64,000 nt of DNA from positions 1,024,001 through 1,088,000 of the forward strand of contig OY970309.1 in assembly GCA_963716395.1 (NCBI GenBank), read 5' to 3'. The position numbers and the translations under genes are program-made. Positions 3,213 through 22,614 of this stretch are shown here, piece after piece. This DNA is from an uncultured Fibrobacteria bacterium (GTDB taxonomy: Bacteria; Fibrobacterota; Fibrobacteria; UBA11236). The notes beneath the pieces were generated by a model, which was not told where the DNA came from, made no database searches, and saw nothing but the letters and a program-made list of their open reading frames with translations. Within the stretch, counting starts at the first letter, position 1, and each line of letters starts with the position of its first letter.

Positions 3213-4427
3213 TTAATTCGGATATTCGCCGGCCTGAAAGCGCGATGGAGCGTGTAGCACCGACACGGCCGGTTGCAAACTACGTGCGCGTTCGACCCGG
3301 TTCCAGGCTCCCGAGTCTTTGAGGAACAAGGCTTTGAAAAAACCCAGCAGCAGGGCGGCGTTCATGGAGACGAAATAAAACGGAATCAAAAGCGCTTTGT
3401 GTTTGTTTGCGCCGCGGCTGGCGAGAAAACCCAAGGCGGCGGCGCCGTAGAACAACCCCTGTGCGGCCAGCAGCCCGGCATATACCGGCCCGGTGGCAAC
3501 CAACGCCACATTGGAAACCAGGAGGAACAACATCACCAGGGGCGCGAGCCAGCGGAGCAATTTATGCGAGAAAAAGCCGTAGGCCACCAAGGGGCGCAAA
3601 GGATTCAGCAGCCCGGCATAGCGCGGCAATTGGTTGAAATTGGCCTGACTGATGCGCACCTTGCGGTGAAATTCGCCGTAGGCATCGAGCGAGGTTTCTT
3701 CGCTGCCGATGGCCTGCGGTTCATACACCGCAGCTTTGCCGGCCTGCAGCACCCGCGTGGTAACAAAAAAGTCATCCATGACTTTGCGGTCGATGGGAAT
3801 CGGTTCAAAGAGTTCTTTGCGAATGGCGTAGATGCCGCCGTTGGCGCCGATCACGATGCCGAGACGACCTTCCAACTTTTTGATTTCCGATTCCAGGTTC
3901 CAATACATGCTTTCGCCGATCCCCAGGGAAGAGTGGCCCGCATCGTTGAGAATCAGATGCCCGCACACGCATCCCACTTCGGGGTTTTCGAAAGGCGCCA
4001 GTAATTTTTGCAACGCGTTCTTGAGCAGCATGGTATTGGCGTCGCAGAACACCACGATTTCGCCCTGGGCGCGGGGCACCAACTGGTTTAGGACGCCGGC
4101 CTTGCCCGAACGCTGCGAAAAGGCGAAGAGCTTCACGTTGGGCGCATATTTGGCCACGATGGATTCAGTGCGGTCGGTGGAGCCGTCGGAGCCGACGAGA
4201 ATTTCCAGGCGGTCGCGGGGGAATTCGAGTTCGAAGCAGTTGTGGATTTTTTCTTCGATGACTTTTTCTTCATTGTAGGCGGCAATGACCACCGAGACCT
4301 TGGGGTTGGCCGGACGTCCGCGCCGCTTCCGCAGGCCGAAGAAATAACGCAGTACCGGCAGCGAAAGCGGGTACACCACGTACGTGTGGATGAGCAGCGC
4401 CGCCGCGCCCCACAACGCCAGTTCCAT
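3213..4427 (-). CDS. Glycosyltransferase family 2 (CESA/IcaA-like, membrane-bound)
   Basis: VIAAYNEE, DGSTD, GKAGVLN, FCDAN, GANGGIYAIR, MDDF motifs; ATG overlaps the upstream TGA (TGATG). Confidence 0.9.
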   Translation of the reverse strand: MELALWGAAALLIHTYVVYPLSLPVLRYFFGLRKRRGRPANPKVSVVIAAYNEEKVIEEKIHNCFELEFPRDRLEILVGSDGSTDRTESIVAKYAPNVKLFAFSQRSGKAGVLNQLVPRAQGEIVVFCDANTMLLKNALQKLLAPFENPEVGCVCGHLILNDAGHSSLGIGESMYWNLESEIKKLEGRLGIVIGANGGIYAIRKELFEPIPIDRKVMDDFFVTTRVLQAGKAAVYEPQAIGSEETSLDAYGEFHRKVRISQANFNQLPRYAGLLNPLRPLVAYGFFSHKLLRWLAPLVMLFLLVSNVALVATGPVYAGLLAAQGLFYGAAALGFLASRGANKHKALLIPFYFVSMNAALLLGFFKALFLKDSGAWNRVERARSLQPAVSVLHAPSRFQAGEYPN

Positions 4428-4915
4428 CAACCGGCACCCTTGATGAAATCGTCGAAACTGACCTTGCGCTCGCGCGCGCCCGACGAGATGTAGGCCAGCA
4501 GCTTCACCATCAGATCGGGCTCGGCATATGAAGAAAAGCTGCCGATGAGTTCGCCCTTGGGATTCATGAAGAGCAAGGTGGGCAAGCCTTCGACGCCCCA
4601 CATCGCGACCAGATCCTTGGCCGTCATCTTCTGGCCTTTCCACACCACGGATTCGTTGCCGTCGGCATTGAGCCGGACGCTGACAAAGCGTTGGTCGAGG
4701 GCGGTAATGACCGGCGGCGCGCGAAAGGTGACGGCATCGAGCTTCTTGCAGTACTCGCACCAATCGGCATAGACGTCGACGAAGACATACTTGCCTTCGG
4801 ATTTAGCGTCCTGAATGCCGGAGGAAAAATTTTGCCATTGAATGACGGCGGGATCTTTGGCTTGCGTCGCCACGGCGAGAACGAGAAAGAGACCGAGGGC
4901 ACCGAAAGGTTTCAT
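4427..4915 (-). CDS. Exported thioredoxin-fold protein (SoxW/DsbD-C-like)
   Basis: Signal peptide, WCEYC motif, GLPT cis-Pro loop. Confidence 0.85.
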   Translation of the reverse strand: MKPFGALGLFLVLAVATQAKDPAVIQWQNFSSGIQDAKSEGKYVFVDVYADWCEYCKKLDAVTFRAPPVITALDQRFVSVRLNADGNESVVWKGQKMTAKDLVAMWGVEGLPTLLFMNPKGELIGSFSSYAEPDLMVKLLAYISSGARERKVSFDDFIKGAG

Positions 4916-4918
4916 GGC

Positions 4919-5248
4919 TTACATCGCCGCGCTGAGCTTTTCCACGATCTTGCTTTTGGGATAGGCGCCCACGAGTTGCTGCACCACCGCGCCGTTTTTG
5001 AAGTACATCAGGGTGGGAATGCTGCGGATACCGTAACGGCTCGCGATATCGGGAGCATCGTCGGTATTGAGTTTTCCGACCTTGACCTTGCCGTTATAGT
5101 CTTTCGCCACCTCTTCCACGATGGGCGACACAACTTTGCAAGGGCCGCACCATGGGGCCCAGAAATCCACCAATACGGTTCCCGCAAACTGGGAAACCTC
5201 TTTTTCGAAATTCTCGCTGTCGAGTTGCACTACGAATTCACCGGCCAT
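4919..5248 (-). CDS. trxA: Thioredoxin
   Basis: DFWAPWCGPC and SIPTL motifs, 109 aa. Confidence 0.95.
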   Translation of the reverse strand: MAGEFVVQLDSENFEKEVSQFAGTVLVDFWAPWCGPCKVVSPIVEEVAKDYNGKVKVGKLNTDDAPDIASRYGIRSIPTLMYFKNGAVVQQLVGAYPKSKIVEKLSAAM

Positions 5249-17982: not shown

Positions 17983-19182
17983 GTGTCGAATCTTTTTGCA
18001 TGGCGATCCTCGTCGCTGCATCGCTGGATTTTGGGATTCGGTTTGGCGGCGGCGCCGGTATTGGGCCACCCCAACGGAACTTCCAACACCACCATCCGGC
18101 TCGTCACTCCGGATTCCCTCGAAATGGCCATGAATGTGAATCACGACGATTTGATGAACGTCCTCGGCTTTCACGCCGGCATCCAATACGGTCGGCAAAT
18201 CACGGCGAAGCAAGCGGCCATATTCGACTCCGAAGCCCAGGATTATTTCCGCGCGCGCGTGCGCCTCAAGGTCGATGATCGCCTTCTCGATGGCTTGCAT
18301 GTGATTTCTTGGAAACCCGGGGGCAAAGGCCCGGCCGACGATTTCACCGACGATTCGGCCTACTTCTGGCGGGCGAATTTCGACATCACTTTGGCCGGGG
18401 TGCTGCCTCCTCACAGCCAAAACCTCAACGTCGCGGTGCAAATGTTCGCCGAATTCGGAATCCAGGCGATTTCGCGCGTCGCGCTATATTGGAAAGACAG
18501 CTTGGTGGAAGAGCATTGGATCGGCCTGGATCAGACCATCAACCTTCCCCTGAATCCCGACACCTTGAACGCCATGTTGAGGGCGCAAAAAATCAAACCG
18601 GAAAAAGTGGCGGCACCAAACGGAAATCTCACCGGGCACTTTCTCTTCTTGGGTTTTCAGCACGTTTTGACCAACGGGCTCGACTACATATTGTTCGTGT
18701 TGGGATTGTATTTCTTCGCAACGGGCCTGCGTCCGCTGCTCTTGCAATTCATCGCCTATTCCGCGGCGCTTTCATTGACTTTGTGGCTTTCGATGGCCGG
18801 GGCGCTTTCGTTGACGCCGCGCATCGTGGAACCATTGATGGCTCTTTCCATCGCCGTCGTCGGACTGGAAAACCTTTTCTTCCGCAAAGTTTCACTCTGG
18901 CGCTGGTGCATCGTGTTTGGTTTAGGCCTGGTGCATGGCCTGGGGTTGGCCGCGGCTTTGGGGCAATTGGGCGGGCCGGAGATCCAACTCGGGCCGACCT
19001 TGGCCGGCTTCAATGTGGGCGTGGAATTGGGGCTGCTCGCCGTGGTGGTTATCGCTTTGGCTTTGACGCGCTGGTTCTGGTCCAAGCCTTGGTATTTCAA
19101 ACGCATCGCCTTGCCCGCCAGCGCGGCGATCACCGTGGTGGCGCTGTATTGGGTGGTGCGGCGCACCATGGGTGCGCTTTAA
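17983..19182 (+). CDS. HupE/UreJ-family membrane protein with N-terminal exported domain
   Basis: Signal peptide then His; [24 protein letters not shown] motifs. Confidence 0.8.
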
Positions 19183-19229
19183 AGACCGTTTGTCCCGGAC
19201 TCGAATGCTATTTTTGTCTCTCGCGACGG

Positions 19230-19306
19230 GCACCAGTAGCTCAGCTGGATAGAGCGTCGGCCTCCGAAGCCGAAGGTCGCAGGTTCGACTCCTGTCTGGT
19301 GTACCA
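19230..19306 (+). tRNA. tRNA-Arg (anticodon CCG)
   Basis: Acceptor stem GCACCAG/CTGGTGT, D arm AGCTCAGCTGGATAGAGC, anticodon arm TCGGC-CTCCGAA-GCCGA, GTTCGA T loop, encoded CCA. Confidence 0.97.
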
Positions 19307-19442
19307 GCCGTCCGTAAATTTCACTTCGGTTCCTCTTATTCAGCTTGGTGACGGTTGATCGCGGTTCAACCAATATTTCCCGTCTGATGAGCAGCCACTA
19401 TTTGCGAAACGAAAGCTGCGTCATCCTTCCGATTCGGTCGGC

Positions 19443-19679
19443 TTACTTCCTCATCCACTTGGCCTCTATTTCGGGATTAAAACGCATTTTCCCATCCTTG
19501 TTCATGGACCAGACATCCATGATTTCCCTTTTGTTGCGGTAGATCGCGTTCTCGCCCGCCTCGGCAAGCTTCCGGCGGTTGATCCGTCGCAGAGCTCGGT
19601 TGTATAGCTGCTTATCGTCCTCTTCGGACCGCGCACAAGTGACCCCCATGACCGGGGACTTTCTGCGGGAACGACTCAT
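19443..19679 (-). CDS. Small Arg/Lys-rich hypothetical protein (78 aa, MSRSRRKSP...W.M.KDGK)
   Basis: AGGAG SD 8 nt upstream; resembles a widespread uncharacterised small basic protein family (recognised from memory). Confidence 0.7.
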   Translation of the reverse strand: MSRSRRKSPVMGVTCARSEEDDKQLYNRALRRINRRKLAEAGENAIYRNKREIMDVWSMNKDGKMRFNPEIEAKWMRK

Positions 19680-19723
19680 GTTGTTCACTCCTGGTTGGGT
19701 GATTACAACATGGGTTCCTCCTT
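19678..19723 (-). promoter_or_regulatory. Minimal uORF (ATG TTG TAA, 19711-19703) with strong SD, in a hairpin that covers the downstream start codon
   Basis: Minus strand reads AAGGAGG-AACCC-ATGTTGTAA-TCACCCAACC-AGGAG-TGAACAAC-ATG; CATGTTGT pairs with ACAACATG and TCAC with GTGA. Confidence 0.65.
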
Positions 19724-20080
19724 TTTATTCATCGCTTGCCGCCCGTCAACCTTCCAGAAATTTAAGCAACTGCGCGGTTGTGAACCTACCCAGTGGGAAG
19801 GCACCCGCCACGCCGACGGCGCTCTTTTATCCAAGCCTAAATGCCCCGCAACACTTTTTCGTTGTTGAGGTGGGAGAAGGTATGCGCCGCGCAATTGCTC
19901 CCGGCACGCAGGGCTTGCGATTCTCTTCCAGATTACGCCCGGCGTTTCTGCGTATTACCGTACCTCGCCGGTAGCAGGTCTAAGCCTCCGGCGCGAGCCT
20001 GTCACAAGCATTATGTCAACCGCCGGTTTCAGTCGCCTGCGACGACCCGGGCCGCCCGCGCGGGAAAGCTTTTTCTCTTT

Positions 20081-20484
20081 TCAACCGTGTTTTTTTAAAT
20101 ACCGCCGAACAAAGGCCGCCGGTTTCAAGATGTGGATTTCTCCGATCTTTTCCAGATCACCGAGATCACGATCTCCCGATATAACACAAGCCACGCGCGC
20201 CTCAAGCGCGCAACTCAGGAACTTGTCATCCTTTGGGTCACGACAAAGCTTGACCTCGTGTGGCGGCATAATGAGACGTGCTTTAGCATGGATGATGCGG
20301 ATCCACTCCTCAACCTTTTGCGGCCTTTGCCCAGGTCACGAAGGGTTGCCGCATTTTCCCAGACGATACCCGGGCTGGCCACCACTTCAAAACGACCTTC
20401 CTGCCACCCGATCAAAACGCGCTCGGGATTACCGCCCCAGAAGACGCCGGACACCAAAACGTTGGTATCAAGCACTACCAGCAC
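20081..20484 (-). pseudogene. PIN-domain toxin (VapC-like), frameshifted near 20310
   Basis: N-terminal VVLDTNVLVS and C-terminal CRDPKDDKFLSCA...ISGDRDL lie in different frames; either a true pseudogene or an assembly indel. Confidence 0.8.
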
Positions 20485-20737
20485 GACGCACTTTCTGGAT
20501 GGCCTTCTTCACGTCGCTGCGTTTCAGCCCGGCCCGCCGCGCATACTCGTGGCTGTCCCGTAAAAGCTTCTTAAAAGCGGTCATGCTGGGCGTGAGTACG
20601 GGCTTCATAAGCAGGTTATCCCCGTCGCTGAACACCATGAACTTTACTCCCTCCTCAAGACCCATTTGTTTGCGGATGTCTTGGGGGATGACGACTTGAC
20701 CGCGTGACGACATGCTGGTGAACTCCATTTGCGGCAT
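20468..20737 (-). CDS. AbrB/MazE/SpoVT-family antitoxin
   Basis: SSRGQVVIPQDIRKQMGL motif; overlaps the PIN gene; palindrome ATAAGA-TTT-TCTTAT at 20749-20763 upstream. Confidence 0.9.
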   Translation of the reverse strand: MPQMEFTSMSSRGQVVIPQDIRKQMGLEEGVKFMVFSDGDNLLMKPVLTPSMTAFKKLLRDSHEYARRAGLKRSDVKKAIQKVRRAGSA

Positions 20738-20937
20738 AGAACCCTCCGATAAGATTTTCTTATTAGTAAGTATACCAGCTTTTGAGGTTTCCGATCTGCC
20801 ATTTCACAACCTCCCGCTCCGCCCTCGGCGGACGGGAGGCCAGCCGCGGTATTACAAATACGGCGCATTTTGTATGCAGAGTCTGATTTCCTTATTTGGC
20901 CAAAACCAATCCATCAAAAACCAAATCTTTCGGACTT

Positions 20938-21453
20938 TTACAGCGCGCTTACAGTATTCGCCAAATCGATTTTTGGGTAGGTGTTTTTCAAGACCTCGTC
21001 TTGCGCTTGTTTCTCATCGACGATTTGCAAAAACTGCGGCATCGTCAGGAATGAACCGCGTCGTTGGACTGAAAACTTGAGCGCGCCGAGATAAACGCCC
21101 TTGCCTTTTTCCACCATAAAGGATTTCGAGTAAAGAACTATGACGCGCTGACCGGATTGGGTCATGTTCACGTTTTGCAAGGTGTAATGCCCGGGTTCGA
21201 CTTCCAAGACGAAATCATATTCCTTGGTTTTAAACGGCAGATAAAACCAATTCTTGGAAAATGCAAACGTTTTACCGGATTCCTGGTGCTTGAAATTAAG
21301 GTTTAACCCAGACGCCCCGGAAATATCACAGGTCACCTTGCCATAGATAAATGATCTTTCGGCTGTGTCGGAGTCGACGGGTAGGTCTTTGAGTTGGGGC
21401 GCACAGGCAAGCAGAAAAGCGAACAAGGAAAAGACCAGAATTTTTTTCTGCAT
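20938..21453 (-). CDS. Hypothetical lipoprotein
   Basis: Lipobox LLAC; EPGHY and YLG motifs; AT-rich coding. Confidence 0.7.
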   Translation of the reverse strand: MQKKILVFSLFAFLLACAPQLKDLPVDSDTAERSFIYGKVTCDISGASGLNLNFKHQESGKTFAFSKNWFYLPFKTKEYDFVLEVEPGHYTLQNVNMTQSGQRVIVLYSKSFMVEKGKGVYLGALKFSVQRRGSFLTMPQFLQIVDEKQAQDEVLKNTYPKIDLANTVSAL

Positions 21454-21492
21454 AAACTGAATAAATTGAAAACAAATTTTCCTATACCTTGA

Positions 21493-22029
21493 TCAATAGA
21501 TGTCCATGCTCGCTTCGATGCTTGGAAAATCCAGATTCTGATCGAACCGAGACGACAAATCGGTATAAGTTATGGTAATCTCTTGGTTTTTATTGAGGAT
21601 CAAAGCCTGTTTTATTTTGAGGGGATACCCCTGTGAAGTCGTCGTATAACTCATTTCGCCATAGGTGTTGCCATCCAAGGTTAAAATGGTGTCCGAATAA
21701 TTGCCCAAATCCAAAATTTGGGATTGTAATTGCACTTTCTCCGAATCCAAAGTGGATCTCCAATCAATCACCGCGCTTCCGGTATGCGGCTCAATGATGA
21801 TATTGACATTGGGAGAAAAATTCTGGCTGGCGGGGCCAAGAGCCACCAAATCGACATTCACGGTGCCATATTTCTGATCGAGCTTGAGTTGCCAATTGGA
21901 GGGGAATTGCAGGGATAGGCCGATGGCGCTGTTGGTGTATTTGTTATTCTGAATCGACCGGCTATCTATCGAATTGTCCACACAATTGAATAAAAACAGG
22001 GACAAAATAAATGCGGAAATAATTTTCAT
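21493..22029 (-). CDS. Hypothetical lipoprotein (PsbP/DcrB-like fold)
   Basis: Signal peptide with Cys, FPSNW and PNVNI motifs, GGAGG SD. Confidence 0.65.
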   Translation of the reverse strand: MKIISAFILSLFLFNCVDNSIDSRSIQNNKYTNSAIGLSLQFPSNWQLKLDQKYGTVNVDLVALGPASQNFSPNVNIIIEPHTGSAVIDWRSTLDSEKVQLQSQILDLGNYSDTILTLDGNTYGEMSYTTTSQGYPLKIKQALILNKNQEITITYTDLSSRFDQNLDFPSIEASMDIY

Positions 22030-22614
22030 TCTAGGCGCCTCCGGTGATTTGAAATCGATTCTATCACAATTTGATCGCTTGATCGAACCTGGACTTAGTT
22101 TAAAAACTCGGCGCTCGCAACCGACTCCCGGCTACTGACTTGCGCTATTATTTGCTCGGACTCGATTTCCGGGAATCCGGTTCCGGTTGCTTCCGATGAA
22201 ACCGGACCGCTGTTGATTTGGAAATCCTTCCTTGCAGACGGCAGCGTCTACAAAGAGATTCGGGTGGATCCATTACAAGTTGAATTTTTATAACTTCAAA
22301 ATGCGCGGTGTTGGCGGTTTCATGGGTTCCGTATGTCGTGGTGAAAGACAATTTCATCAAGGCTGTTTACAAATACAATTTCTGAACCGGAAAATAATCC
22401 GGAACCCCTTGTCGCAAACATGTCGTTAAATGGTCGGCCTTGCGGTCGATTTGCCACGAGATCATCCAATTGTTTTTTTGAAGTCGCCGGTCGTCGACAC
22501 AAATCGGTTTGACGGTCCACCTGCAATTTGTGAAGTCGCGCACCGGAGCCTGGCCATCGCATTTCCAACGCGGGCGGGCTTTCTTATCAATTCGAAACAA
22601 AAGGGAGATTCAAG

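Follow-up and report, generated by a model that had tools for sequence, protein, structure and literature searches.

A two-codon reading frame paired with the start codon of a small basic-protein gene: a candidate translational lock in an uncultured Fibrobacteria bacterium and in uncultured phages

In a stretch of 64,000 nucleotides (nt) of contig OY970309.1 (positions 1,024,001 to 1,088,000 of the forward strand) from an uncultured Fibrobacteria bacterium, hereafter called the window, we examined a minus-strand gene for a small basic protein together with its leader, which contains a frame of only two codons, here termed the mini-frame. The gene, stop codon counted in, occupies 19443..19679 and encodes a protein of 78 amino acids (MSRSRRKSPVMG...KWMRK). 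In the leader, on the same strand, an upstream Shine-Dalgarno sequence AAGGAGG (19717..19723) is followed by 5 nt (aaccc) and the mini-frame ATG TTG TAA (19703..19711), so that a Shine-Dalgarno sequence, a start codon, one sense codon and a stop codon, the elements of a two-codon minigene, are all present. The main gene has a Shine-Dalgarno sequence of its own, AGGAG (19688..19692), located 8 nt 5′ of the main ATG (19679). Between the mini-frame stop and the main ATG there are 23 nt, and the distance from ATG to ATG is 32 nt, as the sequence-only reading of this locus had described. The 3′ end of the host 16S rRNA is CCTCCTTTCT, in which CCTCCTT is complementary to all 7 nt of AAGGAGG, compared with a complementarity of 5 nt for the main site. 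It was also noticed that the mini-frame coincides with the last three codons of a 63-codon open reading frame (ORF; 19894-19703); a homologue search with this ORF found none, and it was dropped as a candidate for a real gene.

Folding of an 81-nt stretch with RNAfold predicted a hairpin (19677..19712, minus strand) in which CATGTTGT/AA/TCAC pairs with GTGA-ACAACATG. The first part of the helix joins CATGTTGT (19712-19705) to ACAACATG (19684-19677), the latter including the main start codon, and the second part joins TCAC (19702-19699) to GTGA (19688-19685). The mini-frame therefore is the 5′ arm, the main ATG lies within the 3′ arm, and the main Shine-Dalgarno sequence, partly paired in the predicted fold, is placed in and beside the hairpin loop. 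With a predicted energy of -23.4 kcal/mol, the fold had z = -4.11, and its stability was not reached by any of 200 dinucleotide shuffles. The predicted unpaired probability was 0.58 for the upstream Shine-Dalgarno sequence and 0.00 for the main AUG, the latter rising to 0.95 when a ribosome-sized footprint was laid on the mini-frame. Since the mini-frame is itself the 5′ arm, a ribosome on it must melt the hairpin, as had been supposed. Rfam 15, searched over window positions 19000-20300 at E <= 1 (E, expectation value), matched only tRNA and no RNA family at the leader; a tRNA remnant upstream of the leader was also considered, and none was found at this threshold.

The protein contains 21 Arg+Lys among its 78 residues, which agrees with its earlier description as Arg/Lys-rich, and belongs to a family of 790 representative clusters at E <= 1e-3 (HMMER, 1.84 billion representatives), nearly all of 73-112 residues. 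The consensus of the core family is MSRSRRKTP..G.T.A.SEK.DKR.ANR..RR ... W.M.KDGK.RFDP...MRK, and the family profile recognized the window protein at E 6.4e-33. A divergent branch, with the consensus MSRSYRKPW..DGY...KR.ANR..R..DVPNG.AYRK..SWNISD...WKAR.K, is homologous to the core family (hhalign probability 96.4%, E 1.2e-9). All cluster and source names examined read 'hypothetical protein', and a protein atlas look-up returned unnamed clusters only. The window protein had no match among the Pfam, NCBIfam and PADLOC profiles and a single one, at chance level (E 0.16), among PHROGs; when 81 family members were scanned against profile libraries, the best E was 0.0079 and each family was matched by a single member, and the family profile reached at best E 0.065 against PDB sequences. 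An AlphaFold model (predicted local distance difference test, pLDDT, 85) has a long helix against which short strands at the N and C termini are packed. Foldseek of the model against PDB and BFVD returned nothing at E <= 0.001, and VIA-align in its wide setting gave a best Z of 3.3 (root-mean-square deviation 5.5 over 54 residues) for a first model and 2.7 for a second. The family is an undescribed one of proteins that probably bind nucleic acid. A role in ribosome binding or rescue, which had been proposed from the sequence, was not supported by any family or fold match in these searches. A search of the literature for the leader design or the protein family found no description, although one may exist.

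To follow the leader across the family, relatives were taken from 78 viral loci and 80 metagenome loci, the latter being the best among 396 confirmed stretches (loci are denoted below by L numbers). For the core family, 166 hits of the hidden Markov model yielded 161 assigned start codons and 156 usable leaders, of which 137 were distinct. A Shine-Dalgarno sequence followed by ATG-NNN-stop was found in 3 of these 137, those of the window, L151 and L152, in each case between -31 and -33, the shuffle expectation being 0.46 over a span wider than this. The leaders of the window and L152 are far more alike than the proteins that they precede. The divergent branch was sampled by protein: 52 loci, from which one partial match was dropped, gave 44 distinct leaders, and the mini-frame was present in 20 of them, 19 by rule and one (L295, with a weak upstream site) by eye. 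The expectation that homologues would keep a start-X-stop frame with a covarying hairpin thus held for a subset, 20/44 leaders of the divergent branch, and failed for most of the core family, where 134/137 had no mini-frame.

The viral contigs were also scanned for a pattern consisting of GGAGG, 4-7 nt, ATG NNN stop, 19-25 nt, and an ATG with an MSRS-like protein start, pairing between the two frames not being demanded. With one sense codon, 12 of the 28 matches led small basic proteins beginning with MSRS and resembling the family (profile E 4e-28 to 0.07), whereas the family-like share was 1/41 with two sense codons and 2/34 with none. The form consisting of a start, one codon and a stop is therefore specifically favoured.

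Across 27 distinct leaders with a mini-frame, the distance from ATG to ATG was 28-36 nt, approximately one ribosome footprint. The stop codon was TAA in 16, TAG in 10 and TGA in 1; the excess of TAA and TAG over TGA could mean dependence on release factor 1 (RF1) or merely reflect base composition. ATG TTG TAA, identical to that of the window, occurred in L190, L198, L208, L295 and L152 (941-949). Over the 27 leaders the sense codon varied (TTG 7, ATG 3, CTA 3, also ACA, TCA, TTA, CAT and others), and on this ground the idea that it senses one specific tRNA or amino acid was dropped. Two further leaders look like decayed mini-frame leaders and may be of use as natural mutants: L308 has kept the helix with no upstream ATG, and L330 has kept both Shine-Dalgarno sites with no frame.

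Pairing between the mini-frame and the main start was examined in the scan matches, where those not preceding a family gene served as a built-in control, the imposed features being common to both sets. At least 5 predicted pairs were found in 15/15 family-like leaders as against 22/69 of the other matches, and the longest uninterrupted helix averaged 8.7 base pairs (bp) versus 5.2 bp (Mann-Whitney p = 2e-6). Within the divergent branch, leaders with the mini-frame had a mean z of -2.3 and the main start fully paired in 16/20, whereas those without it had a mean z of -0.6 and full pairing in 6/24 (Fisher p = 7e-4). The helices differ in sequence from leader to leader, as in GTCATAGC/GCTATGAC, GACATAGG/CCTATGTC, CTCATGATG/CATCATGAG, GCATTAA/TTAATGC and ACTTAAC/GTTAAGT. 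When arms were permuted among the 27 distinct leaders, the mean helix was 8.93 bp for a leader's own arms and 6.15 bp for swapped arms, and 0 of 10,000 permutations reached the observed mean.

RNAalifold predicted no pairs on MAFFT alignments, since the helix moves out of register by a few bases from one leader to the next; a named structure, alignment-free helix counts and a covariance model were therefore used. In an alignment of 10 phage leaders, 84.4% of the cells of the named structure were paired, compared with 30-63% when the partner was slid by 1-3 columns, and its covariation score was 0.337 against 0.236 +/- 0.031 in shuffles, with 2/500 shuffles reaching 0.337. Changes on both sides were seen at the three sense-codon positions. 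In many leaders, CCUU in addition pairs with the AAGG of the main Shine-Dalgarno sequence to form a small apical stem. Over the 27 leaders, the mean predicted unpaired probability was 0.57 for the upstream Shine-Dalgarno sequence, 0.12 for the mini-frame AUG, 0.45 for the main Shine-Dalgarno sequence and 0.10 for the main AUG. Forcing the mini-frame footprint open raised the main AUG from 0.10 to 0.69 and the energy from -17.7 to -3.3 kcal/mol; as this predicted gain in accessibility is for the most part a matter of geometry, it does not count as independent evidence.

A covariance model, R1, was trained on the 10 phage leaders with the window excluded; its E values are rough owing to a shortened calibration. 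In the window, R1 gave a full match at 19677..19724 on the minus strand (45.8 bits, E 1.2e-7), the next match being at E 1.5, and in the 3.75-Mb genome the window leader was the only match (E 7.2e-6). The hairpin between mini-frame and main start, described earlier by the sequence-only reading, was in this way recovered by a model that had not been trained on it. On 100 core-family loci (401 kb) R1 had no match, and on a second set of 100 loci it returned the training sequences and four untrained leaders. One of these, L152:926-973, belongs to a second copy in L152, is located between tRNA-Glu and tRNA-Tyr before a divergent-branch gene, and has both ATG TTG TAA and the 3′ arm identical to those of the window. 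On five whole viral records (1.81 Mb), 6/6 matches were at leaders of family genes. Rfam, run on five phage loci, identified tRNAs, one group I intron and sub-threshold matches elsewhere, and nothing at the leader positions. The unit is more than chance. Its anatomy, its conservation, the covariation of its arms and its restriction to one gene family are what these data show.

Hairpins of other kinds were also noted in the core family, where z was below -3 in 18/137 leaders as opposed to 3/131 controls from neighbouring genes, and hairpins masking the start codon or Shine-Dalgarno sequence without a mini-frame were enriched. About 8 of these 18 leaders form one related group with GGAGGT in the loop of a covarying stem. 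This alternative leader design (L025, L027, L029, L030, L037, L048, L055, L071, L072 and L080) has a stem of 9-11 bp (e.g. TTCATTAGC ... GCTAATGAA), GGAGGT in the loop and an outer stem extending into codons 2-4, with compensating changes between loci such as CGTTAGC/GCTAACG. In one viral clade (L122, L129 and L147, about 3310-4230), the leader has an A/T-rich hairpin without a mini-frame, and a LAGLIDADG endonuclease gene is always located 3′ of the family gene.

Relatives of the gene are frequently found near tRNA genes. A tRNA gene was present within 500 nt in 20/142 distinct loci, nearly always on the same strand, and several of the viral loci are embedded in dense tRNA arrays, in which as many as 26 tRNAs share 6 kb. 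In the divergent branch, a tRNA was within 500 nt in 23/44 loci, and every tRNA there was on the strand of the gene. In the phage loci the leader starts 8-70 nt past a tRNA 3′ end, and the gene often stops a few bases before the next tRNA. Because leader and gene fit so tightly between tRNAs of the same strand, the phage mRNA of the gene is probably cut out of a tRNA precursor. Among the records of cultured phages, none matched the divergent branch. Three cultured phages of temperate type carry the gene as a small ORF without a name, in one case adjoining a BrnT/BrnA pair.

The 138 flanking ORFs of 69 loci, scanned with Pfam, proved diverse and included no fixed partner, and a fixed partner protein encoded next door was dropped as an explanation on that account. 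The rtcB or ABC-F neighbours that had been anticipated were not among the Pfam families named in these ORFs. Those with an RNA theme were T4-type RNA ligases 1 and 2, one Ro60/TROVE protein, one DTW protein and one arginyl-tRNA synthetase; LAGLIDADG, HNH and DUF559 endonucleases were also found. The Ro60/TROVE-vWA gene (L155:1393-2997, on a viral contig) ends directly 5′ of the family gene and is the sole hint of the RNA-repair neighbourhood expected by the sequence-only reading. In L294, a group I intron (1841-2041; Rfam RF00028, 63 bits, above the family cut-off) within a phage tRNA array adjoins a family gene led by a mini-frame. In L152, a 128-kb viral contig, large zinc-finger-rich ORFs at 1340-2728, 3334-4248 and 4464-5090, the first two with DUF559 endonuclease domains, are scattered among 13 tRNA genes and two small genes led by mini-frames, and probably encode homing endonucleases.

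In the bacterium, the family gene is present in a single copy in the 3.75-Mb genome. A search of 11 congeneric genomes did not find it (best E 0.17), and across the phylum it was found in 4/296 genomes, the window's own counted; a word-index protein search gave one relative and a genome-contig scan one partial match. The leader region of the window had no match in cultured phage DNA. On the 3′ side, a tRNA-Arg(CCG) gene (19230..19306, plus strand) is convergent with the gene, 137 nt from its stop codon, and is possibly the border of an acquired segment. The 5′ neighbours of the leader are a gene for a MazE/AbrB-type antitoxin (20468-20737, minus strand; PF04014) and, following it, a PIN-domain toxin gene split into two overlapping frames (20215-20484 and 20081-20269, minus strand) with PF13470 on both fragments; the whole (20081-20737), directly upstream of the leader, resembles a decayed toxin-antitoxin pair. 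Beyond it, positions 20750-22550 have a guanine plus cytosine (G+C) content of 0.41-0.47 against 0.55-0.67 around and carry two lipoprotein-like ORFs, one with a PsbP_2 match, the family gene being located at the edge of this lower-G+C stretch. The low-G+C stretch and the tRNA-Arg suggest an acquired segment, in which no integrase was seen. From the single copy, the patchy distribution, the tRNA-Arg, the toxin-antitoxin neighbours and the G+C edge, we infer that the gene arrived on a mobile element. The gene and its leader are of phage origin, their relatives being located between the tRNA genes of large uncultured phages and on the tRNA strand.

We consider it somewhat better than an even chance (about 0.55) that the leader is a translational lock with ribosome hand-over, in which translation of the main gene is coupled to initiation at the mini-gene. 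The main start codon, and partly its Shine-Dalgarno sequence, would be shut in the hairpin, the other arm of which would be the two-codon mini-gene, served by a Shine-Dalgarno sequence that is stronger and more accessible than the main one. A 30S subunit or ribosome would dock at the upstream site and capture the mini-gene AUG, by which the 5′ arm would be held open; after one peptide bond, termination would occur 19-25 nt before the main AUG, and the same or a new ribosome could then initiate at the freed main site. It is implied that the mini-gene is translated and that its translation would activate the main gene.

Several points weigh against this lock. The main doubt comes from the LEE1 operon, in which a two-codon minigene 29 bp before the start lowered expression 2- to 10-fold (PMC3262186); by analogy, the spacing here being 19-25 nt, the sign of the effect could be opposite. 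The absence of a mini-frame from 134 of the 137 core-family leaders indicates that it is dispensable for the gene as such. All structures are predicted, and in them the mini-frame AUG is also buried (unpaired probability 0.12), so that initiation there would depend on helix breathing or standby binding. The first pattern scan imposed several of the features itself, and related phage leaders are not independent of each other. Finally, there is a promoter-like match (TTGACG, 16 nt, TAAAAA; 19722..19749, minus strand); it is weak, was recognized by eye and is not listed by a consensus scan, but if it is used, the 5′ end of the transcript would fall on the upstream Shine-Dalgarno sequence or shortly 3′ of it.

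The leader can be compared with several known systems. In the ermC and cat leaders, a ribosome on the leader frame opens a hairpin hiding the ribosome-binding site of the next gene; these frames have 9-19 residues, their nascent chains sense the drug, and ermC has alternative pairings. The present leader, unlike these, has two codons, with which no nascent-chain sensing is possible, and a single helix, and neither a peptide long enough for the exit tunnel nor a conserved stalling sequence was found, the frame having two codons and a variable sense codon. The bar minigenes of phage lambda cause peptidyl-tRNA drop-off and are toxic when Pth is limiting, and are not known to gate a downstream gene via a hairpin. 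The likeness to bar, which is discussed in PMC8708949, lies in a phage-borne two-codon frame behind a Shine-Dalgarno sequence.

A closer parallel is mgtQ of Salmonella, whose translation frees the sequestered ribosome-binding site of mgtB (PMC8092293). Here too, a short upstream frame overlaps a predicted stem-loop that hides the start region of the next gene; the main start codon is predicted to be sequestered (z = -4.1), and the upstream frame not only overlaps the arm paired to the main site, as in mgtQ, but is that arm. mgtQ differs in having 8 codons, among which specific acidic, ribosome-destabilising codons are described as required (PMC8092293), whereas the present frame has one variable sense codon and pairs with the main start codon itself. 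Moreover, mgtQ is one locus in one operon, while the design described here is seen repeatedly, its arms covarying, throughout a family of phage genes.

Two-codon minigenes upstream of a gene are known to raise the expression of ler in LEE1 of enterohaemorrhagic Escherichia coli (PMC3262186) and of txe in axe-txe (PMC8708949), and share with our leader the Shine-Dalgarno sequence, AUG, one sense codon and stop. In both, translation of the minigene alters the expression of the next gene and the spacing matters (PMC3262186, PMC8708949). The LEE1 minigene naturally has a spacing of 124 nt, as opposed to 19-25 nt here, and in the opinion of its investigators secondary structure had minimal effects (PMC3262186); for axe-txe protection of the mRNA was proposed (PMC8708949). 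A conserved hairpin with the main start codon is not reported for either, while this pairing is the conserved feature in the present family. By analogy, the leader resembles a combination of the logic of mgtQ-mgtB with that of the LEE1 and axe-txe minigenes.

A different use of the same hairpin would be a stall-sensing attenuator, in which the hairpin would stay shut and induction would occur only when a ribosome lingers on the mini-frame, be it because the first peptide bond, termination or recycling is slow, a tRNA is missing or a drug is present. With start codons 28-36 nt apart, a paused ribosome would open the 5′ arm and leave the main site just clear; the stop codons (TAA 16, TAG 10, TGA 1) would fit dependence on one release factor, if base composition does not account for them; and the context of tRNA arrays and RNA ligases would suit a sensor of translation damage. 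However, the sense codon is unconserved and apparently dictated by pairing to the bases preceding the main ATG, a second, alternative hairpin is lacking, and action in the manner of ermC, which the sequence-only reading had cited as a precedent, is excluded because two codons leave no nascent peptide. Overall we regard such an attenuator as unlikely. A bolder form of the idea, that the two-codon frame acts as a minimal sensor for the state of the translation machinery (supply of initiator or elongator tRNA, RF1, peptidyl-tRNA turnover), is more doubtful; it is a similarly tentative thought that phages use the placement in tRNA arrays to induce a small RNA-binding protein in response to the attack or starvation of tRNAs by the host, and we would give no greater weight to the suggestion that the bacterial copy is a domesticated or stranded counter-measure.

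The sign of the effect would be reversed if the mini-frame were a repressive decoy, on which cycling ribosomes, together with the hairpin, would block the main site so that the basic protein is made at a trickle. The LEE1 minigene 29 bp upstream acted in this sense, since mutations of its Shine-Dalgarno sequence or ATG relieved repression 2- to 4.5-fold (PMC3262186), and in Sinorhizobium meliloti close upstream ribosome-binding sites lower the expression of the main gene (PMC13285730). The upstream site is also the stronger of the two in the window (7 vs 5 nt of complementarity). The occlusion in S. meliloti, however, concerns starts 3-25 nt apart with mutually exclusive occupancy (PMC13285730), whereas the starts in the present leaders are 28-36 nt apart, just past mutual exclusion, and linked by a helix. 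A decoy has no need for a frame complementary to the main start codon, yet it is exactly this pairing that covaries, and we hold the decoy to be improbable.

It may also be asked whether the hairpin is the functional element and the mini-frame secondary, the hairpin being an autoregulatory site for the basic protein or a stabiliser or processing signal of an mRNA released from a tRNA precursor, and the mini-frame a ribosome-binding 5′ stabiliser or the relic of a duplicated ribosome-binding site. The enrichment of masking hairpins without a mini-frame in the core family (18/137 vs 3/131 controls at z < -3), the start of phage leaders 8-70 nt past a tRNA 3′ end, the likeness of the two ribosome-binding sites (TTAACAAAGGAGG and TTAACAAGGAG) and the mRNA protection proposed for the axe-txe minigene (PMC8708949) are consistent with this. 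Within the divergent branch, however, hairpin and mini-frame occur together, a frame with one codon is kept far more than one with zero or two under the same search conditions, and the free variation of the helix sequences speaks against a sequence-specific protein site; a secondary mini-frame is accordingly given little credence. That the arrangement in the bacterium is fortuitous, the mini-frame being the end of the 63-codon ORF with which it is in frame or a chance ATG, as the lack of a mini-frame in most core-family homologues might suggest, is very improbable, since that ORF has no homologue, the phage-trained model finds the window leader at E 1e-7 and as its sole match in the genome, and both its mini-frame and its 3′ arm recur in the phage copy L152:926-973, on which the model had not been trained.

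The lock with ribosome hand-over is thus the reading that we prefer, and what it describes is a known type of translational control in a new, minimal and phylogenetically supported form. The sequence-only reading was right on the unit and wrong or unproven on induction by stress, on the neighbours and on the role of the protein. Frames that open a hairpin in the manner of mgtQ and two-codon minigenes acting in cis have so far been found at single loci (mgtQ, LEE1 and axe-txe), whereas here both ideas are fused in the smallest possible device, which is kept, with compensating changes, upstream of a single gene family, both in dozens of uncultured phages and on at least one bacterial chromosome. 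Its natural variants, differing in spacing, stop choice and helix strength, provide a series from which the rules of ribosome hand-over after one peptide bond can be studied, and the device offers a compact part for synthetic expression control. It also points to an uncharacterised family of small basic proteins of about 790 clusters; since a gene of this family is often the sole protein-coding gene among the tRNA genes of a phage, a role in tRNA function or translation during infection is suggested.

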